A stretch of DNA of 64,000 nt from a virus, in IMG/VR virus record IMGVR_UViG_3300042691_053485, positions 1-64,000 of that record; one strand, written 5' to 3'. The notes under the pieces are model-generated. The model did not search any database, was not told where the DNA came from, and saw nothing but the letters and a program-made list of their open reading frames with translations. The translations under genes were made by a program, and so were the position numbers. Below are positions 3,520-51,389 of the stretch, one piece after another. Each line of letters begins with the position of its first letter. The first letter of the stretch is position 1.

Positions 3520-4518
3520 ATGGACACGAAAAAACTTAATGAAATAATGAAGAAGCGTTTGAATGAAGGCTTCTTTGGGAGCATACAAGAGGAGGAGTTT
3601 GATATAAAGTCAAATCTCACAAGCCTTCTAAAATCCGGAACACCGGATAACATTGAACTTGCCATCATGGTAGCACAGGGTCAAGAGTTTGACATTGATG
3701 CTTTGCTAAATGAGCTTTTCGACTTGAAGTTTTGGATGGATAATCTTGATGATATTCCCCGGACAAGCAAGGTGGAAGCACTCCGTTTTTTGCTGTCAAA
3801 AACTAGCATAAACCTTTCCCGCAAAGGATTGTCGGAACTTTCTGAATCCATCGGCAACTTGCAGAATTTGCAAGGGTTGAATTTGTATAACAACAACCTG
3901 AGCAGTCTTCCGGAATCCATTGGCAACTTGCAGCATTTGCAAGTGTTAGATTTGTCTTATAACAACCTGAGCAGTCTTCCGGAATCCATCGGCAACTTGC
4001 AGAATTTGCAAAGGTTAGGTTTGGGTAACAACAACCTGAGCAGCCTTCCGGAATCCATCGGCAACTTGCAGAATTTGCAAGAGTTAAATTTGGATAACAA
4101 CAACCTGAGCAGCCTTCCGGAATCCATCGGCAACTTGCAGAATTTGAAAGGGTTGTATTTGCGTGGCAACAACCTGAGCAGCCTTCCGGAATCCATCGGT
4201 AACTTGCAAAATTTGATAAGATTGGATTTATTTGATAACAACTTGAGCAGCTTGCCTGAATCTATCGGCAACTTGCAGAATTTGGAACGGTTGTATTTGC
4301 GTGACAACAAGCTAAGCCGCCTTCCGGAATCCATTGGCAACTTGCAGAATTTGCAAAGGTTGTTTTTGGGTAACAACAACCTGAGCAGCCTTCCGGAATC
4401 CATCGGCAACTTGCAGAATTTGGTATGGTTGGATTTGTCCGGCAATACGATACCAACAGATACCCTAAGAAGGTTGAAAGTGGCACTCCCAAATTGCACT
4501 ATAAATGCAAAATTTTGA
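3520..4518 (+). CDS. Leucine-rich repeat protein (LRR paralog 2, about 9 repeats)
   Basis: Leader MDTKKLNE, cap LLKSGTPDNIELAIMVAQG, then 23-aa repeats LSSLPESIGNLQNLxxLxLxxNN. Confidence 0.95.
   Translation: MDTKKLNEIMKKRLNEGFFGSIQEEEFDIKSNLTSLLKSGTPDNIELAIMVAQGQEFDIDALLNELFDLKFWMDNLDDIPRTSKVEALRFLLSKTSINLSRKGLSELSESIGNLQNLQGLNLYNNNLSSLPESIGNLQHLQVLDLSYNNLSSLPESIGNLQNLQRLGLGNNNLSSLPESIGNLQNLQELNLDNNNLSSLPESIGNLQNLKGLYLRGNNLSSLPESIGNLQNLIRLDLFDNNLSSLPESIGNLQNLERLYLRDNKLSRLPESIGNLQNLQRLFLGNNNLSSLPESIGNLQNLVWLDLSGNTIPTDTLRRLKVALPNCTINAKF
3829..4446 (+). repeat. 69-bp tandem coding repeat array
   Basis: Near-identical AACAACCTGAGCAGCCTTCCGGAATCCATCGGCAACTTGCAGAATTTG scaffold every 69 nt with a variable spacer. 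Confidence 0.95.
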
Positions 4519-4530
4519 ACCAAATTAATT

Positions 4531-5178
4531 ATGAAAACTCCAAAAATCAAAATAACAGAATCCCAAATGAAGCTAGCATTTCAAAAGTTAGCTTAATTAC
4601 AGCTTTTGAAAGAAGAACTTTCAAATGAAGAATATGAGAATCTAAAGAATCTCATAAAAGCAGGAGGCGATAATTATAAAATTGCAAAAGAAATTGCAGC
4701 CGCTGAAGGAATAGACATCAAGGAGATTATTCAAGAGATAATTGATGAACTTGGATTTGATATAGATGAAATTTCTAAAGGTTTTTTTGAGTATGCAATT
4801 TGGTTGGAAGAAGAAAATTTGATTGACAGCATTATCGAAATCCAAGGTGAGGATTTTGATTTTACAAAAATTTTAAATGTTTCAAATATAGCTTCTCAAT
4901 CAGAGGTTAAAATAAAGAATTTGATATCGAGATTTCTTTTATCACTTACTCCAGATGTCCTATATGAATTAAGTGGGAGTAAAGATGGTGAAAACTGGGA
5001 CAACGAAATTGGGAGTTCATTCGCAGGTAAAGCTTTAGGGGGTGCTAGTTTCCATTTGAATGGCAACATCAGCCTTACAGATGATGCGAAAACACAAATA
5101 AAAAATGTATTAAAACAACGCGAATTTTGGCTTGATGGCATATATATAGGCAATGACTTAAAAATTCACTTGTACTAA
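4531..5178 (+). pseudogene. Hypothetical protein with an in-frame TAA at 4594-4596 (downstream ORF 4606..5178 intact)
   Basis: ATG 4531 is in frame with 4606: MKTPKIKITESQMKLAFQKLA*LQLLKEE; leader resembles 45879 MKNPRLIITEKQ. Confidence 0.55.
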
Positions 5179-5182
5179 AAGA

Positions 5183-5205: not shown

Positions 5206-5209
5206 CTAT

Positions 5210-6544
5210 TTAGATTAAACCGATTTTCTTTTTCTCAAAATAATTCTTCAGCCCATCACGTGTTAAAGGGATATTATTCTTCGTAAGCTCATGTTTGAAA
5301 TATTTCTCAATAATTTGACTTTCGATGTCAATATCAATTGAATCAGCTATCACAAATGCAAGTTCAATATTCCCAATATCTCCTGTTTTTATCATGGTTA
5401 AAATCATATCCACCTGCTCATCTGCTTCGATTTCAGTTTTATCATCGTTGTTTTGTGTTATCAAGGGGATATAGGCGTAGAGTCCTGCAAGTTTTTTCAT
5501 CATCTTCTCAGCAGCTCTATTCATAAGCTTTATTTCATGTCTATAGAAATCTTCATAACTTCCTGTGAGTTTAGACTTCTTTAGATATTTTTTTAGATAC
5601 TCTACTTGACTTCCTCCAACACCCAAAAAAGAAGTTGCTAATCCTGTTGTATTAGACTTAAATAACTCAAAAAGTTTTGAAAGAATAAGTTCAGCTATAT
5701 CATCGTTGCTATATTGCAATACCTCATAACCGTGAGTTTTAGCTAATTGACCACGAACCAAATCAGATTGTGCCGCGATTGAATCTAGCAACTTTTCATA
5801 GGTCATCTCTTTAGCACTCTCTAATTCATAGTAGGCTTCACTTTTTTTCAAAAACTGTTTAAATTCAGGCTGAGTTATACCCTGTTCAACGATTTTTGCA
5901 GCTAACTCAGGCACACGAACTGCATTTTCGATGTTATGTGTATAATACATCAAGAAAAAAAACTTCCTCAATAAACCAATATTGAATCTTTCATTTAATG
6001 CAGAGTTCACTGCTCCATATTTGATAGTCTCTCCTGCTGGACGGTCACTTTTTTTCGATACATCAAAAGAATGCGCCATTTCATGTGTTAAATGAGATAT
6101 CGCATCATTTTTTATACTATACATGAAATCGTAAAATTCTTTTGAGTCATAAGACTTTTTAACCCCTGGATTTATTCCAATATTAATTCCAATCGTAATT
6201 TGGTTTGTTGGATTATGAGATTTAACCCTGTATGATTTTCCATTTTTTGGAGGTGCAACAGTCTGGGCATAAGGTCTAAAATACATCCCTAAATATCGAT
6301 AATTTTCATCTCCTGACATGGATATAGGTGTGAAATCAAAAGAGAAATCAATAGTATCAAATGAATAATCTCCTATTTTGAATCGCCCTGGAATCTTGTG
6401 TTGATACGAAATATCATCAAAGGTTTTGGATTTTCTTATGAATTCCAAAACTTTTTCATAGAAATGCTTGCCCCAGTATAATATTTCATCCGGAACACCA
6501 AGCGCCTCATTTAACTGCTTCTTTATAAAATTTTTAATATTCAT
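5210..6544 (-). CDS. HExxH (zincin-like) motif protein
   Basis: HLTHEMAH motif; leader MNIKNFIKKQLNE; C-terminal copy of the cap module MIKTGDIGNIELAFVIA. Confidence 0.6.
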   Translation of the reverse strand: MNIKNFIKKQLNEALGVPDEILYWGKHFYEKVLEFIRKSKTFDDISYQHKIPGRFKIGDYSFDTIDFSFDFTPISMSGDENYRYLGMYFRPYAQTVAPPKNGKSYRVKSHNPTNQITIGINIGINPGVKKSYDSKEFYDFMYSIKNDAISHLTHEMAHSFDVSKKSDRPAGETIKYGAVNSALNERFNIGLLRKFFFLMYYTHNIENAVRVPELAAKIVEQGITQPEFKQFLKKSEAYYELESAKEMTYEKLLDSIAAQSDLVRGQLAKTHGYEVLQYSNDDIAELILSKLFELFKSNTTGLATSFLGVGGSQVEYLKKYLKKSKLTGSYEDFYRHEIKLMNRAAEKMMKKLAGLYAYIPLITQNNDDKTEIEADEQVDMILTMIKTGDIGNIELAFVIADSIDIDIESQIIEKYFKHELTKNNIPLTRDGLKNYFEKKKIGLI

Positions 6545-6557
6545 GGTTTTTTTTTAT

Positions 6558-7346
6558 TTAAAATTCCACTTTACAATTTGGAAGTATAGCCTTCAACCTC
6601 TTTATTGCATTTGTGGGTATCGTATTGCCGGACAAATCCAACCGTTGCAAATTCTGCAAGTTGCCGAAGGATTCAGGAAGGCTGCTCAGGTTGTTGTTAT
6701 CCAAATCCAACACTTTCAAATTCTGCAAGTTGCCGATGGATTCCGGAAGGCTGCTCAGGTTGTTGTTATACAAATACAACCTTTGCAAATTCTGCAAGTT
6801 GCCGATGGATTCCGGAAGGCTGCTCAGGTTGTTGTTATACAAAACTAACCCTTGCAAATGCTGCAAGTTGCCGAATGATTCCGGAAGACTGCTCAGGTTG
6901 TTATAAGACAAATCTAACCCTTGCAAATGCTGCAAGTTGCCGAATGATTCCGGAAGACTGCTCAGGTTGTTGTTATACAAGCGCAACCATTCCAAATTCT
7001 GCAAGTTGCCGATGGATTCCGGAAGTGCTGACAATCCTTTGCGGTAAAGGTTTATGCTAGTTTTTGACAGCAAAAAACGGAGTGCTTCCACCTTGCTTGT
7101 TTGAGGAATGTCATCAAGATTATCCATCCAAAATTGCAAGTCAAAAAGCTCATTTAGCAAAGCATCAATGTCAAACTCCTGACCCTGTGCTACCATGATG
7201 GCAAGTTCAATGTTATCCGGTGTTCCGGATTTTAGAAGACCTGTGAGCTTTGATTTTATATCAAACACTTCCTCTTCTTGTATGCTCCCAAAGGAACATC
7301 CATCCAAACGCTTCTTCATTACTTCATTTAAATTATTAATATCCAT
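6558..7346 (-). CDS. Leucine-rich repeat protein (LRR paralog 3, about 6 repeats)
   Basis: Same leader, cap and 23-aa repeats as 3520; C-cap LDLSGNTIPT shared with 3520. Confidence 0.95.
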   Translation of the reverse strand: MDINNLNEVMKKRLDGCSFGSIQEEEVFDIKSKLTGLLKSGTPDNIELAIMVAQGQEFDIDALLNELFDLQFWMDNLDDIPQTSKVEALRFLLSKTSINLYRKGLSALPESIGNLQNLEWLRLYNNNLSSLPESFGNLQHLQGLDLSYNNLSSLPESFGNLQHLQGLVLYNNNLSSLPESIGNLQNLQRLYLYNNNLSSLPESIGNLQNLKVLDLDNNNLSSLPESFGNLQNLQRLDLSGNTIPTNAIKRLKAILPNCKVEF

Positions 7347-7358
7347 TCTCCAAAGAAG

Positions 7359-9083
7359 TTACAATGTTTCAAATGTTCTTTCATAATATCCAACTAGCTC
7401 CGATTCTGTTTTGAAATATCTGATATTTTCAGGAGCATAATTTACCATTTCACGCCCCTTTATGATTATGCCATCATAACCTAATTTGAGCATCTCATCT
7501 TCAATGGTTGTGTTTGCCTCGAAATGTCGGATGTCAAATGGAAGTCCGTGTTTTTCACAAAAGTCAATCATTAACTTCTGCCTCCACATTTCAGCTCCAT
7601 TTAATGAATCTACAACAATTGGGTTTTTAGGGACGGCATTTACCACAAAGTAAACATCTCCATATTGTTTAGCCATTGACTTATTACTAAGTGGCACGGT
7701 GTAAAGTCCTTTACCAAATTGACCGCTTACATTATTTGGCTGACCAAGGGTTTTAATCCCCCGCAATGTGACATTTTTGCGTTTCCACATTTTATAGTTA
7801 TCGACAGTTTCATTCATCATATCAACAGTATCTATAGATTGAATTATTATACATTTTGGATTATAGACAATATAATGTTTAAAGTTGCTTGCCGCCCCCC
7901 AGCTCGATTTGTATGGTTCACTTATCTCCAACCCATCAAATCCTAAATTCACCATACCATCCACAAAGGATTTGGCATCGTATAAAAACCAATCATACCA
8001 TACATTTAAAAAGAAATCCTTTTGGCTATCAACATCTGCGCTGTCTCGTATCGCTTGTTTTAGCCCTATTATAGGATTCATGTGCCAATTCTGTGCAATA
8101 CTTTGCCAAGTCTCCTCATCCTTGCTTTTTATCAGTTTGGCAGCAAGATTTAAATCGGTTTTAGAGACTCTTTTCCTATCAGAAATGATATTTTTTAATG
8201 TAAGATTGACGGTGTAAAGATATGCCCCATATTTCATTGCATCAGCCTTATCAGTTGTGAAGTATAAGCCTGGACCCTGCTCATCATTTGCATTTTCGCC
8301 GCCAACGTAATCTGTCACAAGAGAATTATGCTTTACATTTGAACCGTGGTATGCAGTTATTGAACTAGTTTTATCTAAAGATTCGGTCAGGCTAATTGTT
8401 TTTGGATATCGTATTAAACTACCCAAAAACCTGTAATCCTTATTCTTACCCTTATTTTTAACAAAGCCAAAACGCTTATAAAATTTTTCTAAAACAGAAA
8501 CAGGTGTCCCAAATGTGTTTTCAGGGGTTAATGTAATAATTACATGTTTTTTATCTGCCCAATCTATAATATCTTGCATTGCTTTAGAACCAATGCCTTC
8601 TCGCCTTTTATCCTTATCGACAATGATACTTTGGATATAAATCGCAGGAACATCTGATATGTGATATTTGACGTTTATTGAAATTGGATATTTTGACTCA
8701 ATATCTGTTATATGTTCAATTTCATTCAATAATGAGTCTTTAGCTTCAGAAAAAACAACTCTGACGGTTTCATTATTTTCATTAAGACAAAAAACCGCAA
8801 AATTTCCGGCTTCATCGATAGGAAATGGTGCATCTAATGGGACATCTTCACCATTATATTCACCAAATGAGCCTGCATTAGATTCTATGATTGCTTTTTC
8901 AGCCTCACTAATGAGTATATAGCCTCCAAAATACAGACTTCTCACTTCATTTACCAAGTCACACCATGCAATAGAACCCATACGAAATTCCGACTCATCT
9001 AAAGAAAGTTTATTCTCCAAATGATATTTCATACCCTCACTAAGTTGTAATTTTGCCTTATCTTCCTTTAAAATTAACCTCAT
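7359..9083 (-). CDS. Polyvalent multidomain protein: conserved phage N-domain, GNAT acetyltransferase and two ADP-ribosyltransferase-like domains
   Basis: GNAT KRREGIGSKAM...LEKFYKRFGF; ART-like AYHGS...GPGLYFT...AMKYG...GFDG; second TLRG...GKGLYT...AKQYG...GYDG. Confidence 0.7.
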   Translation of the reverse strand: MRLILKEDKAKLQLSEGMKYHLENKLSLDESEFRMGSIAWCDLVNEVRSLYFGGYILISEAEKAIIESNAGSFGEYNGEDVPLDAPFPIDEAGNFAVFCLNENNETVRVVFSEAKDSLLNEIEHITDIESKYPISINVKYHISDVPAIYIQSIIVDKDKRREGIGSKAMQDIIDWADKKHVIITLTPENTFGTPVSVLEKFYKRFGFVKNKGKNKDYRFLGSLIRYPKTISLTESLDKTSSITAYHGSNVKHNSLVTDYVGGENANDEQGPGLYFTTDKADAMKYGAYLYTVNLTLKNIISDRKRVSKTDLNLAAKLIKSKDEETWQSIAQNWHMNPIIGLKQAIRDSADVDSQKDFFLNVWYDWFLYDAKSFVDGMVNLGFDGLEISEPYKSSWGAASNFKHYIVYNPKCIIIQSIDTVDMMNETVDNYKMWKRKNVTLRGIKTLGQPNNVSGQFGKGLYTVPLSNKSMAKQYGDVYFVVNAVPKNPIVVDSLNGAEMWRQKLMIDFCEKHGLPFDIRHFEANTTIEDEMLKLGYDGIIIKGREMVNYAPENIRYFKTESELVGYYERTFETL

Positions 9084-9360: not shown

Positions 9361-10239
9361 CTATCGTAGCTTAATTCCTTCACTATCACAATAGGCTGCA
9401 ATCTTTCTATATCCATCCAAATCTAGGTAAGCTCTAAAGAGGCTTAGTTCATTCAATTTTTTTAAATTTTTTAAATGGTAAAGAAGATTTCCTAAATCCA
9501 ACTCTGAACTACCAATCGATAACTCGCGCAAGTTTGCCAAATTAGAAAAGGATTCTGGTAACATCGAAATCTCATTTCCTGTAAAGTAAAACTCTTCTAA
9601 ATTTTGTAATTGTCCTATTTCATTTGGAAGAGTTGTGATATAGTTATCTTGCAAACTGAGTATTCTCAAGTTTTCCAATTCTCCAATTCTTGGGGAAACT
9701 TCTTGAATTGCATTTTGTCTTAAATAAAGTTCAGTTAAGCGATTTAACATAAAAACTCCATGTGGAATTTCCGTTAGTCCATTTTTAGAGAGTGTTAGAT
9801 ATTCTAAGTTGTATAAATTGCTTATATCTTCGGGAAGAGAAGTTAATTCATTATTACTAAGGTCTATCTTATATAATGAATGTAAATTGCACAAATTTTT
9901 TGGTAGTTCGGAAAAGTTTTCATCAGAAAGGTAAAGTGTATTTAACCTGAATAGTTTTTTCACACCATTAATCAACCCTCCGGTGTAATTTATTTGACCT
10001 AATAAAGACCCCCATTCATCAAGGATTATTTCCTCGATATTTATGTTAAAACCTAGTGCTAACTGTTCTGCCAACTGTAAATTATCAGTATCTCCTGACC
10101 TAACAAGTTCTCGAATTTGCGGTTCAAAATTATCATCCTCAAAAAGATTTTTTTTAATTAAATCTCCCTCTTGTATGTTCCCAAAGAAGCCTTCATCCAA
10201 ACGCTTCTTCATTACTTCATTTATTTTTTTTGTATTCAT
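9361..10239 (-). CDS. Leucine-rich repeat protein (LRR paralog 4, divergent repeats)
   Basis: Likely start MNTKKINEVMKKRLDEGFFG; repeats LxxLxLxxNxLxxLP. Confidence 0.9.
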   Translation of the reverse strand: MNTKKINEVMKKRLDEGFFGNIQEGDLIKKNLFEDDNFEPQIRELVRSGDTDNLQLAEQLALGFNINIEEIILDEWGSLLGQINYTGGLINGVKKLFRLNTLYLSDENFSELPKNLCNLHSLYKIDLSNNELTSLPEDISNLYNLEYLTLSKNGLTEIPHGVFMLNRLTELYLRQNAIQEVSPRIGELENLRILSLQDNYITTLPNEIGQLQNLEEFYFTGNEISMLPESFSNLANLRELSIGSSELDLGNLLYHLKNLKKLNELSLFRAYLDLDGYRKIAAYCDSEGIKLR

Positions 10240-10240: not shown

Positions 10241-11155
10241 TTATATTGCAACATTGAGATTAGTTTCGCTTTCATATTTCTTTAATTTTTCAATAGTTTC
10301 AGGAGAAAGAGGATTCATAGAAAAATCAAATGAGCAGTATTCTAAGTTGTAAATACTTTCAGGGAGTACTGAAATATTATTGTTCGAAAAATTAATATAG
10401 CGTAAAGACCTCATATTCCCAATGCTTTCAGGAATAGATGTTATTTTATTTGATGTCATATATAAATCTTTCAATTTGTCAAGATTTGAAATTTCACTTG
10501 GAATTTCTGTTATTTTATTATTTGATAAGTCTAACTCAGATATTTTTGGTAATGATAAAATTTCTGTTGGGAAATAATTGAAGTTATTTTTATGTAAATC
10601 GAGAACCTTTATATGGATTAATTTAGAAAATGTTTTAGGCAACTTGCTAAGTTTATTTTTGGCTATGTTGAAAAATTGTAATTTCTCACAATTTCCAATT
10701 GCATCGGGTAGTAATGCTAATTGGTTATTCATGAGGAAGAGTCCTTCTAAATCCTGAAGATTCCCAATTTCATTTGGGAGTTCAGATAAATTGTTTAGGC
10801 TTGTGTCAAGAAATTTTATTGTCGGTATATTCAAAAATCCACGTGGAATATAACTCAAGTTTCGACTATCTAATGTCACCTCATTCTTAATAACATCTAC
10901 ATACCATAAAACTCCATCTATGGTATGGTCTATATCACTGCCTATCTTACCAAAAACATCATATATAATTTTTGATAATGGTATCCCCGAAGATTTTGCA
11001 ATTTCTTCAGCAATCTCCATATTTGTCTTTTGAAAAGACATAAACATCTCTAGAAGATTTTCATATTCTTCATTAGAAATTTCATAATCTTCTTTGAGCG
11101 TTTTTAATCTTCTTTTGATATTGTTGTAAATTGCTTCAGATAATAAAACTTTCAT
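10241..11155 (-). CDS. Leucine-rich repeat protein (LRR paralog 5, divergent repeats)
   Basis: Likely start MKVLLSE just below TATTTATA at 11167-11174; 23-aa LRRs. Confidence 0.9.
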   Translation of the reverse strand: MKVLLSEAIYNNIKRRLKTLKEDYEISNEEYENLLEMFMSFQKTNMEIAEEIAKSSGIPLSKIIYDVFGKIGSDIDHTIDGVLWYVDVIKNEVTLDSRNLSYIPRGFLNIPTIKFLDTSLNNLSELPNEIGNLQDLEGLFLMNNQLALLPDAIGNCEKLQFFNIAKNKLSKLPKTFSKLIHIKVLDLHKNNFNYFPTEILSLPKISELDLSNNKITEIPSEISNLDKLKDLYMTSNKITSIPESIGNMRSLRYINFSNNNISVLPESIYNLEYCSFDFSMNPLSPETIEKLKKYESETNLNVAI

Positions 11156-11187: not shown

Positions 11188-12449
11188 GTAAAATTCGATG
11201 AATTTCAAGATTTGTGTTTCACGGTTAAAACCGTTGGCGTGCTACACACCTCTATTGGGTACTGAAATTCCCCAACTTCTTTCTTCAGGATGTTCAATGC
11301 ACCATTAAGGTCAGCATTGATTTGTTTACCCGATGCTGATACAAAGAGTCCTCGTTTCACTCTTTTGCCCGCATACTTTTCGTACTTTTTGATAGGCTCA
11401 TTGTCAAGAAAGCTGCACTTTGAAGTGTAACTCTCTTCTCTTTCTTTGACTTTGATACCAACCAACTGACACTTATATTTGACCATCGCCACAAATGTGC
11501 TGTGAGGAATGGCAACAAAATTCTGATTGTTTGCACTGCCGATATTGATTTCTTGTTTCCACTCCTTATTTTTCCCGATGACAAGCATCGAGATGGAGTT
11601 AGAGACTAATTGATTAACCAATATCCGGCTAGCTTTGTGCATATAATCCTTAACTTTGTTGTTCCTGATTTGCGTGATAGCCTTGATTCTTTTACTTGTT
11701 TTTCTTCCTTGCTTCAACTTGCTTTGCAGTTGTGCCTTCCGCTTGTTGAAGAATTGATTGATGGACTTCAAAGGCTTGCCGTTCAAAATGAACGGCTTGC
11801 AGCAGTTTGATGCCACAGTCGCAAGATTCGATAACCCGAGGTCTATTGATGCGTACCTGCCGTTATCTTGCAACTTAGCAACTTCCGGAATGTTGTAGAT
11901 GACCTCAACAACAACATGTGTGCCTTTCGGAACTATCCTAACTTGTTGAATTGACTGTTTGTTCGTTTTGATGGTCACATCAACACCAGAAAGCTTGACA
12001 ACACCGCTCCGCAACTCTTTATTTGAAATTGCTTGATTGGTATAGGCTGTGAGATAGTGCCCGTCCTTCTCAAGATAGTGAGGGATTCTGACCTTGCGGT
12101 TGTTTGTTCCGGATTTCTTTGCCCTCATTGCCGCAAAAAATGACTTGAAGTTCTGCTCCACCATCCGCAAAGTCTGCTGTGAGACCTTGCGCGGCAAAGC
12201 ACAATAGTCCTCATTCTTCTCCAAGGTGAACTTGTTCACCAACTCACAATACGTGAGAAACTTATTTGTCGAAAAATAGTGCTGTCTGACAGCATACAAT
12301 CCCGCATTGTACAAATTCTTCGACAGGTGGCATATCTGCAAAAGCTCTTTGTACCTCGCATCCGATTTCTTTATTGTATGTTGTTCTACTAATTGCATCG
12401 CAATATCTATATTTTTTCACAAAAATTATACCCAATTTCACAATTCTGT
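11188..12449 (-). mobile_element. TnpB-only IS200/IS605-family (IS1341-like) element
   Basis: tnpB with no tnpA; TTTAC at both proposed junctions (12454-12450 and 11192-11188); subterminal hairpins AAATTC-ATC-GAATTT and ACGGTT-TT-AACCGT. Confidence 0.65.
11205..12398 (-). CDS. tnpB: RNA-guided endonuclease TnpB (IS200/IS605 OrfB)
   Basis: SIDLGLSNLA (RuvC-I), VIGKNKEWKQ, EESYTSKCS, NADLNGALNI (RuvC-III). Confidence 0.9.
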   Translation of the reverse strand: MQLVEQHTIKKSDARYKELLQICHLSKNLYNAGLYAVRQHYFSTNKFLTYCELVNKFTLEKNEDYCALPRKVSQQTLRMVEQNFKSFFAAMRAKKSGTNNRKVRIPHYLEKDGHYLTAYTNQAISNKELRSGVVKLSGVDVTIKTNKQSIQQVRIVPKGTHVVVEVIYNIPEVAKLQDNGRYASIDLGLSNLATVASNCCKPFILNGKPLKSINQFFNKRKAQLQSKLKQGRKTSKRIKAITQIRNNKVKDYMHKASRILVNQLVSNSISMLVIGKNKEWKQEINIGSANNQNFVAIPHSTFVAMVKYKCQLVGIKVKEREESYTSKCSFLDNEPIKKYEKYAGKRVKRGLFVSASGKQINADLNGALNILKKEVGEFQYPIEVCSTPTVLTVKHKS

Positions 12450-15452: not shown

Positions 15453-15484
15453 ATAAAGGCGGTTAAATAACCGCCTTTATTTTT
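15452..15484. terminator. Bidirectional intrinsic terminator
   Basis: AATAAAGGCGGTT-AAAT-AACCGCCTTTATT between convergent genes. Confidence 0.85.
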
Positions 15485-41256: not shown

Positions 41257-41826
41257 ATGAAGAAGTTTATAAAAAGTCAATTAATCTCCCTTAACGAGCA
41301 ATATAATAGTAATATCAATGTTAATTTTTGGAGATGGTTTGGTGACAGTAAAATTGTTGATAATTCCGCCAACCCGCAAATTGTATATCATCGCTCGAAT
41401 AGCGATTTTTCATCATTTGACCCCAAAAAACTTGGTAGTGCAACTGATAAAGGAATCCGAGGAATGGGCTACTATTTTAGTACAAGTGAAATAGCCAATC
41501 GGGGCTATGGAAGCAACTTATATGAAGTTTATCTTAAAATCGAAAACCCTTTCGATTTGTTACGCTTTGATTCTATGGAAGAACTTGCTGAATATCTTGA
41601 GGTTAGTCCTTCAATCTTTATTGATGATAAGGAAAGATTTGGTGGCAGGTCTGTTAAAGTTTATTCGGGATTTGAGGGACTTTTAAGTGATAGCGTAAGT
41701 GATAAAGGTTACGATGGAATCATACATGGGACAACGCATGAAATCGTGGCATTTTATCCCAATCAAATAAAATCAATTCATAACGATGGGACTTGGGATT
41801 GGGGGGACAATAATATTTATTCTTAA
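41257..41826 (+). CDS. ADP-ribosyltransferase-like protein (ART-PolyVal-like)
   Basis: VYHRS..F..FD, GYYFS, YEVYLKIENP, GYDG, EIVAFYPNQIKS; leader MKKFIKSQLISLNE. Confidence 0.75.
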   Translation: MKKFIKSQLISLNEQYNSNINVNFWRWFGDSKIVDNSANPQIVYHRSNSDFSSFDPKKLGSATDKGIRGMGYYFSTSEIANRGYGSNLYEVYLKIENPFDLLRFDSMEELAEYLEVSPSIFIDDKERFGGRSVKVYSGFEGLLSDSVSDKGYDGIIHGTTHEIVAFYPNQIKSIHNDGTWDWGDNNIYS

Positions 41827-43283: not shown

Positions 43284-43856
43284 ATGAAAGTTTTAATATC
43301 TGAAGAATTTGCAAAAAACTATATGTTTTTTCAAAATATCCAAACCATACACAATCTTACAGGAAAGATGTTATCTGCTAACGAAAAAGAAGTAGATGAA
43401 CTCCTTATGAAACATAATTGGGCTATTGACCATATTGCAACCTCAGCGGATGATGTCCAAGAGGTTGCAAATTTTATTTTAGGTGAATTAGAAGAATCAT
43501 TCGAAGCTTTGAAATCTCATAAGAAATTTAAAAACATCGTTGGAGAGTCTTATAAATTTCAAATTAAGGAGGCTGAATATCAAGGAAAAAAAGTGCAATT
43601 AAATAAGCCGTTTAGGCAAGCATATAGCGGAAAGAAATTTGCAGTTTATGTCAAAACCCCAAAGGGTAACGTTAAAAAGGTGAGATTTGGTGCACAGGGT
43701 TATAAGGTTAGAAACGATAACAAAGGAGCTGCAAAAAGCTTTAAGAAACGTCATAAGTGTGACCAAAAAACAGATAAAACTACTCCGGGATATTGGAGTT
43801 GTAATATTGCAAGATACAGAAAAGCATTGGGGCTTTCCTCTGCATCTCAATGGTAA
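43284..43856 (+). CDS. Conserved phage hypothetical protein
   Basis: Leader MKVLISEE; C-domain EAEYQGKKVQLNKP...KKFAVYVK...VRFG...RHKC...GYWSC; TATTTATA at 43266-43273. Confidence 0.75.
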   Translation: MKVLISEEFAKNYMFFQNIQTIHNLTGKMLSANEKEVDELLMKHNWAIDHIATSADDVQEVANFILGELEESFEALKSHKKFKNIVGESYKFQIKEAEYQGKKVQLNKPFRQAYSGKKFAVYVKTPKGNVKKVRFGAQGYKVRNDNKGAAKSFKKRHKCDQKTDKTTPGYWSCNIARYRKALGLSSASQW

Positions 43857-43871: not shown

Positions 43872-44864
43872 ATGAATATAAAAAAGTTAAACGAAACATT
43901 CGACCGAATGAGCAAATCAGGCTTGTTCGGGAAACAAAGACCAATTCTATCCGAGAATTGGAGTCAAGAAGACATCCAAAAAATGAAGCAAATGCTTGCT
44001 TCAGGGGATATGGATAATATTAAGCTCGTTGAGCAGATGACTTCACCTCATCTTTTCAGAGATTTGGTGGATAGTGTTTATGGGGAGTTATTATCCTTTG
44101 CAAATAAAAAAGGCAGAGATGCTGGAGACATAACTTGGCTTTTTAGTAGGGGGGTATTGTATGCAAACAATACGCAACTAAGTACTGTTCCTGAAAACAT
44201 TGGAATTCTGAGTGGATTAGTGACATTGTTTTTGGAAGACAACAACCTGAGCAGCCTTCCGGAATCCATCGGCAACTTACATAATTTGGAAAGGTTAAAT
44301 TTGGGTAACAACAACCTGAGCAGCCTTCCGGAATCCATCGGCAACTTGCAGAATTTGCAACGGTTGGATTTATTCGGTAATAATCTGAGCAGCCTGCCGG
44401 AATCCATCGGCAACTTACATAATTTGGAAAGGTTAAATTTGGGTAACAACAACCTGAGCAGCCTTCCGGAATCCATTGGCAACTTGCAGAATTTGCAAGA
44501 GTTGGATTTGTCTAACAACAAGCTGAGTAACCTTACTAAAGGCTTCGAAAAATTGACAAAATTGACAAAACTCGGTTTAGCTCACAATAACCTCATTATA
44601 TTACCTGAAAGTATCAATAATTTAAGCCTATTAGAGATGTTAGATTTAACAGGAAATGGATTGCACACTCTTTCCGAAAGTATAGGAAATTTGAGTCAAT
44701 TAACAAATTTGAGTTTACGTAATAATAATCTGGAAACTCTCCCTCATAGCATCAGTAGCTTGAGTAGATTGAAGCGTTTATCGTTAGGGAGGAACAAATT
44801 TTCAAATACTGAAATTGAACGTATACAAACAATGCTTCCAAACTGTGGAATTTTTAATTTTTAA
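43872..44864 (+). CDS. Leucine-rich repeat protein (LRR paralog 6, about 9 repeats)
   Basis: Leader MNIKKLNE; 23-aa repeats with an internal 138-nt-offset duplication. Confidence 0.95.
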   Translation: MNIKKLNETFDRMSKSGLFGKQRPILSENWSQEDIQKMKQMLASGDMDNIKLVEQMTSPHLFRDLVDSVYGELLSFANKKGRDAGDITWLFSRGVLYANNTQLSTVPENIGILSGLVTLFLEDNNLSSLPESIGNLHNLERLNLGNNNLSSLPESIGNLQNLQRLDLFGNNLSSLPESIGNLHNLERLNLGNNNLSSLPESIGNLQNLQELDLSNNKLSNLTKGFEKLTKLTKLGLAHNNLIILPESINNLSLLEMLDLTGNGLHTLSESIGNLSQLTNLSLRNNNLETLPHSISSLSRLKRLSLGRNKFSNTEIERIQTMLPNCGIFNF

Positions 44865-44871: not shown

Positions 44872-45876
44872 ATGGATATAAAAAAAGTAAACGAAACATT
44901 CGACCGAATGAGCAAATCAGGCTTGTTCGGGAAAATACAAGAGGAGGTGTTTGATATAAAATCAAAGCTCACAAGCCTTCTAAAATCCGGAACACCGGAT
45001 AACATTGAACTTGCCATCATGGTAGCACAGGGTCAAGAGTTTGATATTGATGACTTGGTAGAAGAGCTTTTTGACTTGCAGTTTTGGATGGATAATCTTG
45101 ATGGTATTCCCCGGACAAGCAAGGTGGAAGCACTCCGTTTTTTGCTGTCAAAAACTATCATAAACCTTTACAGCAAAGGATTGTCGGAACTTTCTGAATC
45201 CATCGGCAACTTGCAGCATTTGCAAGAGTTGTATTTGTATAACAACAACCTGAGCAGCCTTCCGGAATCCATCGGCAACTTGCAGAATTTGAAAGTGTTG
45301 AATTTGGGTGAGAACAAGCTGAACAGCCTTCCGGAATCCATCGGCAACTTGCAGCATTTGCAAAGGTTGGGTTTGTATAACAACAACCTGAGCAATTTGC
45401 CGGAATCCATCGGCAACTTGCAGAATTTGCAAAGGTTAGGTTTGGGTAACAACAACCTGAGCAGCCTTCTGGAATCCTTCGGCAACTTGCAGAATTCGGA
45501 AACGTTGTCTTTGGCTAACAACAACCTGAGCAGCCTTCCTGAATCCATCGGCAACTTGCAGAATTTGCAAGAGTTGTATTTGTATAACAACAACCTGAGC
45601 AGCCTTCCGGAATCCATCGGCAACTTGCAGAATTTGAAAGGGTTGTATTTGCGTGGCAACAACCTGAGCAGCCTTCCGGAATCCATCGGTAACTTGCAAA
45701 ATTTGATAAGATTGGATTTATTTGATAACAACTTGAGCAGCTTGCCTGAATCTATCGGCAACTTGCAGAATTTGCAAGGGTTGAATTTGGGTAACAATAA
45801 TTTTCCTGAAGCTGAAAAGGAACGCATACAAAGAATGCTCCCAAACTGTAAAATATCTTTTAAACGAATACCATAA
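44872..45876 (+). CDS. Leucine-rich repeat protein (LRR paralog 7, about 9 repeats)
   Basis: Start MDIKKVNE at 44872; cap and repeats as in 3520. Confidence 0.95.
   Translation: MDIKKVNETFDRMSKSGLFGKIQEEVFDIKSKLTSLLKSGTPDNIELAIMVAQGQEFDIDDLVEELFDLQFWMDNLDGIPRTSKVEALRFLLSKTIINLYSKGLSELSESIGNLQHLQELYLYNNNLSSLPESIGNLQNLKVLNLGENKLNSLPESIGNLQHLQRLGLYNNNLSNLPESIGNLQNLQRLGLGNNNLSSLLESFGNLQNSETLSLANNNLSSLPESIGNLQNLQELYLYNNNLSSLPESIGNLQNLKGLYLRGNNLSSLPESIGNLQNLIRLDLFDNNLSSLPESIGNLQNLQGLNLGNNNFPEAEKERIQRMLPNCKISFKRIP
45181..45800 (+). repeat. 69-bp tandem coding repeat array
   Basis: Same scaffold as 3829-4446; 45584-45774 is identical to 4094-4284. Confidence 0.95.
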
Positions 45877-45878: not shown

Positions 45879-46766
45879 ATGAAAAACCCAAGACTTATCA
45901 TAACCGAAAAACAGGCAAAATTCGCCAAAAAAAACCTTTTTGAGGATGATAACCCCGAAGAAGTTCAAAAACTTCGTGAGATGTTATTCAGTGGTTCAAA
46001 GGAAACTATTAAAATTGCCCTTGAAGTTTCAGCTTCTTTGGGATATGATATTTCTTTGGATGTGTTCCCTGAATATATAGAACTTCAAAAGTTTTTCGTA
46101 ACACAAAAACCCGCAGGATTAGAGGATTCTTTCTATTCTATCCCAAATATAAAAAACTCACAAGCTCTTTCGGATTGGATTTTATCAATGTCCCAACGAC
46201 AATCTGCATATTTTGCAAATGTTAATAGTAATAATCTTCCACAGGGTGTTGCTATACTAGCGTCTTTGGTTGACTTAACATTGTCTGGCACATTTAGAGT
46301 CTTACCACCTGAATTAGGGAGTTTGCAGAATCTGCAAAGAATACATATTCGAAAGGGGATGTCGTTATCTGACATAAGTATCGTTTCACAACTTCAGAAT
46401 TTGCAGACCTTTGTTTGCAGTAACACTCGGACTTCAGACATAACACCCTTTTATAACACAAATATCAGAACGTTAAAGGTTGCAGATTCAAGAGTGAGTA
46501 AGACCGTGGTTATAAAAAATATGCCAAATTTACAAAGTTTACAATTAAACGGTAATATTGGTCTTAGGAATTTAGTTATTGAATCTGCCCCTAACCTAAT
46601 TGATATTTTCATCGAGGATTGCGACTTAGATGTACTTCCTGAAATATCTCACCTTCCAAACCTCCAACAAATTAATATACCTATTACAAGTCGAACTAAA
46701 CCACAAATTGCGGCTTATGTAGAAAAGAATAAAAACGTAAATGTTGTTATAAATCGATGGGCGTAA
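45879..46766 (+). CDS. Divergent LRR protein (LRR paralog 8)
   Basis: LPPELGSLQNLQRIHI, LQNLQTFVC, MPNLQSLQL, LPNLQQINI. Confidence 0.8.
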   Translation: MKNPRLIITEKQAKFAKKNLFEDDNPEEVQKLREMLFSGSKETIKIALEVSASLGYDISLDVFPEYIELQKFFVTQKPAGLEDSFYSIPNIKNSQALSDWILSMSQRQSAYFANVNSNNLPQGVAILASLVDLTLSGTFRVLPPELGSLQNLQRIHIRKGMSLSDISIVSQLQNLQTFVCSNTRTSDITPFYNTNIRTLKVADSRVSKTVVIKNMPNLQSLQLNGNIGLRNLVIESAPNLIDIFIEDCDLDVLPEISHLPNLQQINIPITSRTKPQIAAYVEKNKNVNVVINRWA

Positions 46767-46768: not shown

Positions 46769-47632
46769 ATGGATATAAATAACCTTAACGAAATAATGAA
46801 GAAGCGTTTGGATGAAGGCTTCTTTGGGAACATACAAGAGGAAGATGAGTTTGATATAAAATCAAAGCTCACAGGTCTTCTAAAATCCGGAACACCGGAT
46901 AATATTGAACTTGCCATCATGATAGCACAGGGTCAGGAGTTTGATATTAATGACTTGGTAGAAGAGCTTTTTGATTTGAATTTTTGGATAGATAATCTCA
47001 AACGCATTCCCCAGACAAGCAAGTCCGAAGCTCTCAGTTTTTTGCTTGCACAAACTGCGATTGACCTTTCCAACAAAGGATTGCCAGCACTTCCTGAATC
47101 CATCGGCAACTTGCAGAATTTGGAATGGTTGAATTTAGATGGAAACAACTTGAGCAGTCTACCCGAATCCATTGGCAATTTGCATAATTTGAAATGGTTG
47201 GGTTTGAATGAGAATGACCTGCACAGACTTCCTGAATCCATCGGCAACTTACAGAATTTGGAATGGTTGGGTTTGTCTAACAGCAACCTGAGTAACCTGC
47301 CTGAATCAATCAGCAACTTGCAGAATTTAAAAAAGTTGTGGTTGGCTGGCAACAACTTGAATAGCCTGCCTGAAAGCATTGGAAATTTGCAGAATTTGGA
47401 AATGTTGGATTTAGGCCGCAATAACCTGAATAGCCTACCTGAAAGCATTGGAAATTTGCAGAATTTGGAAAAGTTGTGGTTGGAATCTAACAATTTAAGA
47501 AGTGTTCCTGAATCATTATACCTATTAAGGGGGTTGAACCGTTTAAACACAAGTGAAAACCCATTGCCTGAAGAAATTCAAGCCTCAATAAAGAAATTTT
47601 GCATTTACACCTCAATTGCACACGACCTATAG
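46769..47632 (+). CDS. Leucine-rich repeat protein (LRR paralog 9, about 7 repeats)
   Basis: Start MDINNLNE at 46769; same cap; 23-aa repeats. Confidence 0.95.
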   Translation: MDINNLNEIMKKRLDEGFFGNIQEEDEFDIKSKLTGLLKSGTPDNIELAIMIAQGQEFDINDLVEELFDLNFWIDNLKRIPQTSKSEALSFLLAQTAIDLSNKGLPALPESIGNLQNLEWLNLDGNNLSSLPESIGNLHNLKWLGLNENDLHRLPESIGNLQNLEWLGLSNSNLSNLPESISNLQNLKKLWLAGNNLNSLPESIGNLQNLEMLDLGRNNLNSLPESIGNLQNLEKLWLESNNLRSVPESLYLLRGLNRLNTSENPLPEEIQASIKKFCIYTSIAHDL

Positions 47633-48454
47633 ATGAAAACCTTTATAAGAAAAATATTAAGAGAACAAAGTGAACTTCCATTGGATTCTAAGTTTCAAAA
47701 GTGGTTTAATGGAAGTAAAATAACCACTGAATCAGGAACTCCTATGATATGTTATCATGGTACAAATGACCCTAACATAAAAGTTTTTGATTTGTCAAAA
47801 ATTGGGGCACATTCAGGCAATTATGGACATTATGGATATGGATTTTACTTTTCGGAAGATAAAGGGGAGGCAATGACTTATGGGAATGTAGTTTACGAAT
47901 GTTTCATAAGAATTATCAATCCATTCATTGGAAGTAAAGAGCAAATCATTGAACTTAAAAACGCAGGAGTCAGCGGAATCGATGATTTGGAGATTTTGTC
48001 AATAGATTTTCAAAGTTTCAAAAATTCACTAAGAGTAATTCCAATTTTATACAGTTTTGTTGAAGCATTCCAAAAGGAGGGTATGGAGGCAGCATGGGAT
48101 ATGTATCACCAATCCCAACATGATAATTTAGCTGACAAAGTGCAGATGGTTTCGGATATCCTTGAATTTACAACGTTTAATAAAAATGTTGATGGAGTTC
48201 CACAATATATTTTAGATAACATAGAGGCACTAGGAATTTCCCCTAAACTTAATAAGGGGCTGTCCTATGACCATCCATTACACTTTATAACAGATTTGGG
48301 TAGTAGAAGCAAAGAAATTACGGAGGTTATAAAGAAATTAGGGTATGACGGTGTCCATTATGGTTCAGAAATTGTTCCATTTTACCCCAACCAAATAAAG
48401 TCAATTCATAATGATGGGACTTGGAACTTACATGACAATAATATTTATTCTTAG
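47633..48454 (+). CDS. ADP-ribosyltransferase-like protein (ART-PolyVal-like) with helical insertion
   Basis: CYHGT, GYGFYFS, YECFIRIINP, GYDG, EIVPFYPNQIKSIHNDGTW; paralog of 41257. Confidence 0.75.
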   Translation: MKTFIRKILREQSELPLDSKFQKWFNGSKITTESGTPMICYHGTNDPNIKVFDLSKIGAHSGNYGHYGYGFYFSEDKGEAMTYGNVVYECFIRIINPFIGSKEQIIELKNAGVSGIDDLEILSIDFQSFKNSLRVIPILYSFVEAFQKEGMEAAWDMYHQSQHDNLADKVQMVSDILEFTTFNKNVDGVPQYILDNIEALGISPKLNKGLSYDHPLHFITDLGSRSKEITEVIKKLGYDGVHYGSEIVPFYPNQIKSIHNDGTWNLHDNNIYS

Positions 48455-48574: not shown

Positions 48575-50008
48575 ATGTACTGGCGCACCTATTTTGATAA
48601 AGATACAGTTATAATAAAAGATTCAACCGTTAATCTAGGTAAGAATCCCGTTACCGAACTCTTTTATGGTGGGACTTATGAAGCCCCGACTTATTCAAGA
48701 TATCTTTTCCACTTTCCAATTGAAAAGCTCAGGGAGTTGTATTCAGATTGCCAACTTGGAGACTTATCAAGAGTAAATCATACATTAGTGCTTAAACCAA
48801 CCCGATATTTCGGGTCTATTGACAAGACAACTGAATGTCTTGCAACAGCCTATGATTTGTGCTTATTTCGCACAAGGCAGGAGTGGTTGGAGGGATGTGG
48901 CTATGATTTTGAATGTAATGAAGGTTGCAATGGTTATGTTAGCCCGAATTGCAATACGTCTTTTGGGGAAGCAAACTGGTTTTACGCAAAACCTGATGAA
49001 AGATGGGAGATTGATGGAGTCTATGATGCTTTTTCCGCAGAAACAATGATAATTACTGGGGATACATATTTTTCCGGCGAACCAATATATTTGGCTTGTA
49101 AAGCTGAGGCATGCGATGACTGCCTATTTAAACTTGACATGACGGAACTTGTTAACCAATTAATAACCGGAGATACACCAAATTATGGTTTTGGACTGGC
49201 ATTTAACAATAGTTATGAATTAAATCCCAAAGGAGTTACCAAATACTTAGGATTTTACAGTTCTCAAACCACAAACTTTTTTAAGCCTTTCATTGAAACT
49301 ACATATTTCAATCCAATTTTGGATGACAGGCATGAATTTTATACCGAAAAGGAAAATTGGCTTTACCTCTATGTAAATGTTAAGGGTGAGCCAACAAATT
49401 TGGATGAAAATCCTATCGTTACGATTTATGATGAGTTTGATACAGTTTATACCACTGTCACAGGCGAATGTGTAACAAAAGGAGTTTATGGAATTTCATT
49501 GGAAGTTTCTCCAACCGGAGAAACTTCTGAATGTGCAGTTTGGAGAGATGTTTGGTCAAATATCAAAATAAATGGTAGAGTATTAAAAGATGCTGAACAG
49601 GAATTTCAAGTGAAATCTAGTGATTCATACTATCAAATCGGAACCCAAACTTATTCACCTAAAGAATTCGGGTTTAGATATCGTGGAGTAAAAAGAGAGG
49701 AAAAAATCAGAAGGGGTGATATTCGAAAGGTTGTAGTTGAAGTGTTTGAGGCATATAAACACAACAAAAAAGTTGTTATTGATAATCTGTATTATAGATT
49801 ATACGTGAAAGAGGGTAGTGAGCAGCTTGATGTAATTCCTTGGACACCTGTTAATATAGGTGCTTGCGAAAATTACATCTACCTTTATAGCGAATGGTTG
49901 ATACCACAGATATATTACATCGATTTTAAAGCAGTATCAAATCAAGAGGAAAGAACATATCCTAACGAAATTAAATTTATCATATTAGACGACAACGCAG
50001 TATGTTAA
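48575..50008 (+). CDS. Cys-rich putative virion structural protein
   Basis: TATTTATA at 48557-48564; beta-rich; NPVTELFYG, SRYLFHF. Confidence 0.65.
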   Translation: MYWRTYFDKDTVIIKDSTVNLGKNPVTELFYGGTYEAPTYSRYLFHFPIEKLRELYSDCQLGDLSRVNHTLVLKPTRYFGSIDKTTECLATAYDLCLFRTRQEWLEGCGYDFECNEGCNGYVSPNCNTSFGEANWFYAKPDERWEIDGVYDAFSAETMIITGDTYFSGEPIYLACKAEACDDCLFKLDMTELVNQLITGDTPNYGFGLAFNNSYELNPKGVTKYLGFYSSQTTNFFKPFIETTYFNPILDDRHEFYTEKENWLYLYVNVKGEPTNLDENPIVTIYDEFDTVYTTVTGECVTKGVYGISLEVSPTGETSECAVWRDVWSNIKINGRVLKDAEQEFQVKSSDSYYQIGTQTYSPKEFGFRYRGVKREEKIRRGDIRKVVVEVFEAYKHNKKVVIDNLYYRLYVKEGSEQLDVIPWTPVNIGACENYIYLYSEWLIPQIYYIDFKAVSNQEERTYPNEIKFIILDDNAVC

Positions 50009-50904
50009 AGAAGCTTATTGTGTCAGAATCCATTTTTGACAAATTACAGTACCGCCAAGGAGATTTTAAATTTTCATCTGAAATTCAGGAGATTTCTAAC
50101 GAAATCAAAGAGTTTCTTTTGGAGGTTTCAAAATCTCCTGAACTATTTGAAAAACTTCGTAAGAATGGATGTGTCCACATAGGAAAAGAATTTATCGCCA
50201 TCAGATTTAATTTTGATAACTGCATTCTTTTAGATTCTTTTGATGGGGAATTTCTTTTGGGATTTTCAACTTCTTTGGGGGCTAAAACCCACCAAGGCAG
50301 AAAAGGATTCTTTTATCACAATCCAACTACTGAATCATGCCACATCAATCTTGTTATCAACCATCAATTTTCCAACGAAGAATTGATAAGTGAGTTAGCA
50401 GCAATATTTGATATGCGGAGGAAGACTTTCGCCCACGAATTCGCCCACTATTTAGACCACAATAAAAGTAGTGGTAAATTTGCTCAAGGATATGATGACA
50501 ATATAAAAAATCCGGAATATTCGAAACAGCAAGCTGAAGTAAATGCAATCTTCAAACAAGTTACATCTGAATTTTACAGCGATTTCAAAAGTGAATATGA
50601 ATCTCATTTGAAGTCTTGGAATGAGAATTCTAATAGCATCATCCAAGATATGATTGACATTGATGATGTAGAGGAAGGATTGAGTGAGCAACAATATTTT
50701 GACTTATATTTGACAGAGTTGTGGGTGCATAGTTCTGTCTGCAATATTGATTATCATTTAAACTTGATTTTAGACGATATTATTGTAAAGACGGGCGAAT
50801 TGTCACCGAGTCAGAAAAAACATCTCACAGGCAGAATCTATGTCTTCCTGAACAACATAAATGACCAGTTCGGAATCAATTGTAAATTGAAGATGAAATA
50901 TTAG
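50002..50904 (+). CDS. HExxH metallopeptidase-like protein
   Basis: TFAHEFAHYLDH followed by AEVNA; leader MLKKLIVSE. Confidence 0.65.
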   Translation: MLKKLIVSESIFDKLQYRQGDFKFSSEIQEISNEIKEFLLEVSKSPELFEKLRKNGCVHIGKEFIAIRFNFDNCILLDSFDGEFLLGFSTSLGAKTHQGRKGFFYHNPTTESCHINLVINHQFSNEELISELAAIFDMRRKTFAHEFAHYLDHNKSSGKFAQGYDDNIKNPEYSKQQAEVNAIFKQVTSEFYSDFKSEYESHLKSWNENSNSIIQDMIDIDDVEEGLSEQQYFDLYLTELWVHSSVCNIDYHLNLILDDIIVKTGELSPSQKKHLTGRIYVFLNNINDQFGINCKLKMKY

Positions 50905-51389
50905 CCAATAAAGTCCAATAAATATTCTTTATCAGGATTATCATTTAGGACGCAGATAAATCCTAAATCACTATATTTTGTTGTGAAATCAGGCTCATGA
51001 GTTAGCTTACTGTGCATTTTGGGGATTTCCAAATCGTTTTGCATTCTGCCTTTGCCTGCATAAAAATGACCGTAGGTGTAAACAATTGCCTTCATAATCT
51101 TATATCCAAGACCTAAACCTTGCAAGCTGTTCGCAATATTAATATGTAATTGGTACAGAGTGTCCGCAATTACTTGGATGGAAACCGCAAGACCACTTTG
51201 GATGTTTACTCCACTAGGCAGGGGGGGGGTATCGATTGACAGCTGAATTGGAGACTCTTCATTTACTTGGTCAATAATTAGGTCTTCCCAAGAAATATTC
51301 CTAAGAAATTCTCTATCTTCATTAGAAATTTGAACTTCTTTTGAAATCGCTATTGCTTCATTTAGTAATTTTCGGATTATTGCCTTCAT
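50901..51389 (-). CDS. GNAT-like protein
   Basis: Start MKAIIRKLLNE below TATTTATA 51395-51402; acetyl-CoA-binding-like LHINIANSLQGLGLGYKI. Confidence 0.55.
   Translation of the reverse strand: MKAIIRKLLNEAIAISKEVQISNEDREFLRNISWEDLIIDQVNEESPIQLSIDTPPLPSGVNIQSGLAVSIQVIADTLYQLHINIANSLQGLGLGYKIMKAIVYTYGHFYAGKGRMQNDLEIPKMHSKLTHEPDFTTKYSDLGFICVLNDNPDKEYLLDFIG

Follow-up and report, generated by a model that had tools for sequence, protein, structure and literature searches.

Hydrophobic-x-Glu leaders on accessory proteins of an uncultured T4-like phage: candidate capsid-targeting propeptides

Proteins that enter the cell together with phage DNA act before phage gene expression; they are therefore prime candidates for counter-defence and host takeover, and they are hard to spot by sequence. 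Whether a short N-terminal leader marks such proteins is the question raised by the first 64,000 nucleotides (hereafter the window) of the IMG/VR virus record IMGVR_UViG_3300042691_053485, a single-contig phage record of 184,534 bp with 35% G+C. An earlier sequence-only reading of the window had proposed that about 18 proteins with a common (I/L/V)-x-E leader are loaded into the head, matured there by a phage protease and injected with the DNA. In our assessment nearly all of that proposal, as far as sequence can address it, is supported, and the leaders are probably T4-type capsid-targeting propeptides, serving an unusually large and shuffled set of accessory proteins.

Leader-bearing genes and the prohead machinery

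We counted 17 open reading frames (ORFs) in the window, close to the number proposed, and about 30 in the 184.5-kb genome that begin with a basic/aliphatic leader of 7-14 residues ending in [ILV]-x-Glu. All 16 N-termini quoted in the earlier reading were found at their ORFs. The carriers are given below, with a slash after the Glu of each predicted cleavage site; elsewhere in the text genes are called by their left-hand coordinate, with (-) for the minus strand.

3520-4518, plus strand: leucine-rich repeat (LRR) protein with LRR Pfam matches; leader MDTKKLNE/, second site RLNE/
5210-6544, minus strand: HExxH protein of 444 residues, HEMAH at residue 154; leader MNIKNFIKKQLNE/
6558-7346, minus strand: LRR protein; leader MDINNLNE/
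7359-9083, minus strand: multidomain protein; leader MRLILKE/..LSE/, then a conserved 110-residue domain, GNAT and a region like ART-PolyVal (ART, ADP-ribosyltransferase)
9361-10239, minus strand: LRR protein; leader MNTKKINE/, second site RLDE/
10241-11155, minus strand: LRR protein heading the minus-strand cluster, with a promoter-like motif; leader MKVLLSE/
25130-26134, plus strand: nucleotidyltransferase (NTase)-like protein (PF01909, E 0.0016, weak and under the cutoff), with a promoter-like motif; leader MRILVSE/, second site IFE/
28881-29294, plus strand: 137-residue protein upstream of the large terminase, gene and motif kept in relatives; leader MKNNLLIKE/
41257-41826, plus strand: ART-PolyVal ADP-ribosyltransferase (PF18760, E 2.6e-20); leader MKKFIKSQLISLNE/
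43284-43856, plus strand: basic 190-residue protein (net charge +15), first gene of the plus-strand cluster; leader MKVLISE/
43872-44864, plus strand: LRR protein; leader MNIKKLNE/
44872-45876, plus strand: LRR protein; leader MDIKKVNE/
45879-46766, plus strand: LRR protein; leader MKNPRLIITE/, second site LFE/
46769-47632, plus strand: LRR protein; leader MDINNLNE/, second site RLDE/
47633-48454, plus strand: ART-PolyVal protein (PF18760, E 2.6e-17); leader MKTFIRKILRE/
50002-50904, plus strand: HExxH protein of 300 residues, HEFAH at residue 145; leader MLKKLIVSE/
50901-51389, minus strand: 162-residue protein, function not assigned, with its own promoter-like motif; leader MKAIIRKLLNE/

Leader sub-types in the source genome are MKxLISE, MKxFIRKILxE and MDxKKLNE, and two tandem sites are common. 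The domain assignments made from the sequence (LRR, ART, GNAT, NTase and HExxH) hold, the NTase match being weak, and the window contains nine LRR genes. Only the 7359 (-) protein has more than one effector domain, namely a Pfam GNAT domain and an ART-PolyVal match (E 6.6e-6) whose 27.4 bits lie under the 31.2-bit cutoff. PHROG and Pfam searches gave no function for 43284, 50901 (-), 28881, 77475, 92595, 182631 and 128060 (-); of these, 28881 might belong to the core head or packaging proteins and not to the effectors. In 9361 (-), 10241 (-), 44815 (+) and 46757 (+) the longest ORF begins earlier and the leader is read from a Met inside it, a choice backed in 10241 (-) by a promoter-like motif that overlaps the earlier ATG.

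In T4, propeptides of 7-19 residues direct proteins to the scaffolding core, and the first 10 residues of IPIII are enough to package foreign proteins (PMC9026906, PMC3012670). The T4 leaders, as read from the T4 record, are MKTYQEFIAE/A (IPII and IPIII), MAKINELLRE/S (gp24), MLKEQLIAE/A (gp22) and MNEPQLLIE/T (gp21). They are matched in length, position and ending by MKTFIRKILRE/Q, MKAIIRKLLNE/A and MKVLISE/E of the window.

The window also holds a head module in T4 gene order: large terminase, portal, four small ORFs, S77 protease, acidic scaffold and gp23-type capsid protein. Its main genes are as follows.

29366-31135, plus strand: large terminase (PHROG 2, E 2e-42)
31157-33559, plus strand: portal protein (PHROG 213, E 5e-51)
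36164-36934, plus strand: prohead protease of the T4 gp21 family, Peptidase_S77 (PF03420, E 1.9e-20)
36995-38161, plus strand: putative scaffold, gp22-like, strongly acidic in the middle and with KLEE and SLNE at the N-terminus, between the protease and capsid genes as in T4
38186-40012, plus strand: gp23-type major capsid protein of 608 residues (PF07068, E 1.6e-70), predicted maturation cleavage after Glu73 (ALVE/S)

The earlier suggestion that ALVE/S sits at the gp23 cleavage site was borne out by an alignment of eight capsid proteins, in which ALVE73/S falls in the column of T4 gp23 FLTE65/A, with the Glu invariant and [ILV]xE kept in all eight. Relatives have LILE, ILNE, LLTE, LLSE, LLNE or IVSE in this column, and no covariation of the leader P2 residue with the P2 residue of the capsid cleavage site was seen. 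Relative to T4 gp23, the capsid protein also has about 250 extra residues inserted after the N-terminal arm, ahead of the conserved C-terminal part, with several cysteines that are kept in relatives.

The 36164 protein is likewise supported as a member of the gp21 family: besides the Pfam match, it matches the T4 gp21 structure 5JBL (E 1.6e-14) and is about 30% identical to gp21. Neither His94 nor Ser157 varies in relatives or in T4; the crystallised chain has Ala at both of these positions, where wild-type T4 gp21 has His and Ser, and from this alignment the two residues are taken to be the catalytic pair. Near the N-terminus, LMIE17 lines up with LLIE9, the proposed autocleavage site of T4 gp21 (PMC9026906). 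The scaffold had no Pfam or PHROG match; when aligned with relatives, it shows conserved ends around an acidic, low-complexity centre, and the N-terminal LEE and SLNE are kept.

A leader of the T4 kind would bind the scaffolding core late in infection, so that the protein would be built into the prohead. The S77 protease would then cut after the leader Glu, at the same type of site as in the capsid protein, the scaffold and the protease itself, and cleavage would free the mature protein within the head. At the next infection the mature proteins would exit with the DNA and act ahead of any phage gene expression; their likely activities are ADP-ribosylation, acetylation, proteolysis, nucleotidyl transfer and LRR-mediated binding of host proteins.

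Could the leaders instead be a signal that has nothing to do with the capsid, serving membrane association, oligomerisation or regulated turnover by a Lon-like protease of the phage? They are amphipathic helices, and the phage does encode a Lon-like ATP-dependent protease (804 residues; 15463-17877, minus strand; PHROG 4871, E 1e-216). However, we found no link of this enzyme to Glu-specific sites, the leaders lack the length and the hydrophobicity of membrane anchors, and the same motif recurs at the gp23-homologous maturation site, on the scaffold and on the protease. We regard a non-capsid signal as very unlikely.

A leader shared by unrelated proteins

The capsid-targeting interpretation is also supported by the way in which the leader is combined with its cargo. 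Among ART-PolyVal homologues of 41257, the domain starts at a conserved NFWKWFG motif and several homologues begin directly there; close homologues have an extension of 20-30 residues, for example MELRKFIATTIREYLNE or MRQRIRQILRE. In an AlphaFold2 model of the 41257 protein (mean pLDDT, the predicted local distance difference test, 84.8), residues 2-13 form a lone helix that is followed by a linker. The pLDDT is 52-59 over residues 1-20, with the minimum at residues 12-15 (LNE14), and exceeds 90 in the domain from about residue 22. A search for ART-PolyVal in five related contigs gave no match.

Similar exchanges are seen with other bodies. In bacteria, homologues of the beta-lactamase-fold protein carry Sec-type signal peptides; a phage homologue starts with MIRIRQILQE and the copy in the source genome with MKFKSILSE. 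Over its first 111 residues, the 7359 (-) protein has 51% identity to a separate leader-bearing protein of 117 residues, encoded beside the head module of a relative. The 43284 and 128060 (-) proteins have seven of their first nine residues in common and no other similarity.

The most extreme case is an array in a 108-kb metagenomic contig (JGI Ga0645784_00096; L107:5141-15401), where more than 20 tandem ORFs all start with M[RK]xRIRNIL[ILF]E and continue into ART domains, a family of about 110 residues and other bodies. This leader is kept at the DNA level too (ATGAGAAATCGCATACG.AACATA); an IMG/VR scan with its DNA consensus gave no match. Among relatives of the source phage leaders are strongly conserved, as MK(K)IILTE-xQ[YF]kk[LI][LI]xE and MKxII[KR]KIL[KR]E, and each related lineage has its own consensus in which the Glu and the hydrophobic P3 are kept and the remainder varies. 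Judged from these comparisons and from the model, the leader behaves as a portable unit, placed on unrelated cargo and dispensable for the cargo fold.

The cargo itself is diverse. When the bodies were compared all against all by BLAST after trimming of the first 25 residues, only the 16 LRR genes and the ART pair were linked, which leaves at least 19 independent bodies, among them LRR, ART-PolyVal, GNAT+ART, NTase-like, HExxH, beta-lactamase fold and GP88. Carriers outside the window include the beta-lactamase-fold protein 66928 (-), the ART 119219 (-), the GP88-family protein 149513, the HExxH proteins 78352 and 150599, and more LRR genes. The LRR family uses three leader types, and its leader-bearing members retain at least one motif copy even though the other copy is mutated; a search with the N-terminal module of this family returned near-identical phage copies only, and no bacterial relatives. 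Four carriers have a HEF[AT]H..D region in common. The closest Atlas clusters of the HExxH carriers are virus-only; they weakly resemble M78 and the polyvalent-protein domain LPD23, and we treat this as a lead only.

The nature of these bodies bears on an alternative in which the leaders are real prohead signals, while most carriers are structural or DNA-organising proteins of the head interior, or are degraded in maturation, and are not injected as effectors. T4 core proteins with such sites are indeed mostly destroyed or left as peptides (PMC9026906). The 28881 gene, together with a gene downstream of the capsid gene in relatives, represents conserved leader-bearing genes of the head module, and the 43284 protein is strongly basic, as are DNA-associated internal proteins and the internal proteins of T4. 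On the other hand, enzymes and LRR binders of kinds seen in injected polyvalent proteins make up most of the carriers, which are placed in variable clusters outside the conserved core. As an account of the set as a whole, a structural or transient role seems unlikely.

Leader frequency, expression and other lineages

For counting, a strict leader was defined as having no acidic residue before the Glu, at least one K or R, at least three hydrophobic residues and the Glu at position 7-14. Such leaders occur in 25 of 192 ORFs, compared with 5.0 ± 2.1 in internal windows, 5.1 in windows starting at an internal Met and 8.5 ± 2.8 with shuffled N-termini, so the genome-wide enrichment anticipated by the earlier reading was found for this definition. 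In two related contigs (126 and 152 kb) the counts were 17 vs 4.0 and 22 vs 5.8 expected. Over the 64 strict leaders of the three genomes, P4 is mostly I or L; P3 is restricted to L, I or V by the definition itself. A second hydrophobic-x-Glu lies 4-18 residues after the leader in 26 of 35 leader proteins, against a background of 35% (p ~3e-6), and in 16 of 24 by hand count when the LRR family is set aside.

These counts speak to the possibility that the leaders are a by-product of composition and paralogy, with no targeting: AT-rich codons would bias N-termini towards K, N, I and L, [ILV]xE is common, and duplicated genes may recombine at shared 5' ends and so spread one start. The 16 LRR paralogues have N-termini alike by descent, promoter and 5' segments have been duplicated (for example upstream of 10241 (-) and 75320 (-)), and Staphylococcus phage K, AT-rich and with another protease type, also gave strict hits in 4 of 89 ORFs (4.5%) of its first 50 kb, albeit with no common consensus. 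Composition does not account for the excess over shuffled N-terminal residues or for a second site far above background. Nor does it explain why near-identical leaders head unrelated bodies while bacterial homologues of the same domains are leaderless, or why the Glu and the hydrophobic P3 are kept across lineages while other consensus positions change. We consider a pure by-product quite unlikely.

Is there a sign that leader genes are expressed together with head genes? The motif (A/T)ATATTTATA stands upstream of the start codon in 48 ORFs genome-wide, at a distance of 11-33 nt and usually about 19 nt; in the window these include 10241 (-), 25130, 29366, 33583, 36164, 36995, 41257, 43284, 48575 and 50901 (-). 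It precedes the genes for the large terminase, protease, scaffold, tail sheath, tail tube and a baseplate protein, as well as the first genes of leader clusters (10241 (-), 25130, 41257, 43284, 50901 (-), 66928 (-), 77475, 119219 (-), 128060 (-) and 149513), and is absent upstream of the exonuclease, DnaB, ribonucleotide reductase, SbcC and helicase genes. Because it is common to head and tail genes and to the first genes of leader clusters, and absent at replication genes, the motif fits, if weakly, with late co-expression of the leader genes with the head genes.

Read on the sense strand, the motif corresponds to the T4 late promoter TATAAATA in reverse complement. The T4 late promoter itself was rejected as the driver, since TATAAATA is not found upstream of leader genes in the sense orientation and the enriched motif is ATATTTATA. 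Transcription units assigned from the motif were also discarded, as 144 of 192 ORFs fall in such a unit and there is no discrimination. The Lon-like protease gene is preceded by this motif as well.

Several points weigh against capsid-targeting propeptides. The bare (I/L/V)-x-E motif is by itself too common to be diagnostic: it is present in 21% of random 12-residue spans, and the loose form ([ILV]xE ending at residues 5-16, with random internal windows as controls) occurs in 56 of 192 ORFs vs 41.4 ± 5.3, so that for the bare motif the anticipated enrichment is weak. The strict definition, in turn, is post hoc, having been set once the data had been seen, and about five of its hits are probably due to chance (28505, 57880 (-), SbcC 152240, the membrane protein 161009 and 167798). 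Two of these, 57880 (-) in the window and SbcC outside it, are chance-like exceptions to the earlier statement that replication and glycan enzymes are leaderless, which is otherwise largely true. The LRR paralogues inflate the raw leader counts, and a promoter-like motif of their own is found in 11 of 37 leader genes vs 39 of 192 ORFs overall, a weak enrichment.

Two further difficulties are of a more general kind. Packaging, cleavage and injection of the leader-bearing proteins are suggested by analogy with T4, and some 30 cargo species are far above the handful known there. Moreover, a comparison of leader-bearing with 'leaderless' ARTs, in which an S77 protease was present in the record for 4 of 5 vs 0 of 5, had to be withdrawn as confounded. 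It cannot separate the hypotheses, because the 'leaderless' ARTs in fact bear another leader, [ILV]-F-E (for example MKYIKLFE), and because one of the phages has an S80 protease.

The phage in question, a 676-kb record of the 'leaderless' ART group (G012), has a T4-type portal and a gp23-type capsid gene. Between its portal and capsid genes lies an ORF of 801 residues (L169:7024-9429, minus strand) whose N-terminus matches Peptidase_S80 (the phiKZ gp175 family) and which, from its sequence, looks like a protease-scaffold fusion. The record has a recurrent leader of its own, MK[HY][LI]KLFE/E[FY] (MKHLKLFE), and strict hits in 34 of the 371 ORFs of its first 200 kb. Such sequences suggest that leaders extend to other lineages of the gp21-protease superfamily, each with its own consensus.

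More tentatively, it is possible, though we would not yet lean towards it, that lineage-specific hydrophobic-x-Glu leaders are a general address label in jumbo and huge phages of the T4 superfamily (S77 and S80), marking dozens of capsid-loaded, injected effectors per genome, diversifying LRR binders included. In that case the leader would allow injected counter-defence proteins to be recognised directly in metagenomic sequence.

Known systems and neighbouring genes

The closest precedent is the T4 capsid-targeting sequence (CTS) system. The internal proteins of T-even phages are diverse and the CTS alone is conserved (PMC9026906, PMC3012670). In both T4 and the source phage a short L/I-x-Glu leader stands on unrelated accessory proteins, one class being an ADP-ribosyltransferase; both encode a protease of the gp21 family and a scaffold like gp22, and their gp23-type capsid proteins carry the motif at homologous positions; and in both the carriers lie in variable clusters. 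The source phage differs in having about 30 carriers, as against the handful in T4, several leader sub-types, often with tandem sites, and a presumed Bacteroidota host. Its candidate cargo is also different, comprising HExxH, GNAT, NTase-like and beta-lactamase-fold proteins as well as an LRR family of 16 members.

Polyvalent proteins (Iyer et al. 2017, PMC5512222) have ART-PolyVal, GNAT, zincin-like and NTase domains in common with the carriers, as well as predicted delivery with the DNA; packaging and injection are predicted or known for ARTs of the 41257-type clade and for the T4 ART Alt (PMC5512222). Polyvalent proteins, however, are giant polypeptides in which 2 to 15 different effector domains are combined with MuF or portal domains (PMC5512222), whereas the carriers here are mostly separate, small, single-domain proteins, each with its own leader, and thus fall outside that class.

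The ejection or inner-body proteins of phiKZ, 201phi2-1 and SPN3US (S80 proteases gp175 and gp245) resemble what is proposed for the carriers, in that many of them have propeptides cut after Glu by a gp21-related protease, and their redundant cleavage sites parallel the tandem leader sites. They differ in the S/A/G-x-E motif, the longer propeptides and the S80 protease; here P3 is Leu, Ile or Val and the protease belongs to S77, which sets the two groups apart.

We found no paper describing such a leader-bearing arsenal, and no published proteomics for the cultured relative Flavobacterium phage immuto. We judge the class of mechanism to be already known; what is new is its scale, together with the sub-types of leader, the paired sites and the cargo, the LRR family especially. 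If the leaders work as T4 CTSs do, a single uncultured Bacteroidota phage would provide about 30 candidate injected effectors and related phages dozens more, including the array of more than 20 in tandem. This would give a simple sequence rule for metagenomes, and would mean that CTS loading scales to a large, rapidly shuffled repertoire and that LRR binders serve as head cargo.

With regard to the phage and its host, a protein with a signal-peptide-like N-terminus and a type IX secretion system (T9SS) C-terminal sorting domain is encoded near the start of the window.

985-2511: the sorting-domain protein (Por_Secre_tail, E 4e-11)

Because of this sorting domain, Bacteroidota are the presumed host of this large, T4-like phage. 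By capsid protein, the closest cultured phages are Flavobacterium phage immuto and a Microcystis phage (about 43% identity, over the C-terminal 40% only); no DNA-level match of the genome to phages in the collection was found. Phage immuto (vB_FspM_immuto) encodes an S77 protease, and some N-termini close to its head module are leader-like.

Four IS605 OrfB/TnpB-like genes are present, two in the window (11205-12398, minus strand; 41936-43186, plus strand) and two elsewhere in the genome (70310-71560, minus strand; 170132-171343, plus strand). Three of them are near-identical and start with MQYKSLKIRLEPT, and one sits within the leader-gene cluster 3' of the capsid gene.

A glycan-related cluster occupies 54843-63845 on the minus strand and includes a GT2 glycosyltransferase (55609-56409) and a UDP-GlcNAc 2-epimerase (58705-59697). 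It is leaderless apart from the chance-like MRIGVTLNE of 57880 (-).

Finally, a paralogous trio of about 185-208 residues begins with MAG.KPN.F (2906-3457, minus strand, and 35139-35702, plus strand, in the window; 118425-119051, plus strand, in the genome). In relatives the same N-terminus heads a protein of 890 residues that adjoins the head module, and the trio may represent fibre or decoration proteins.

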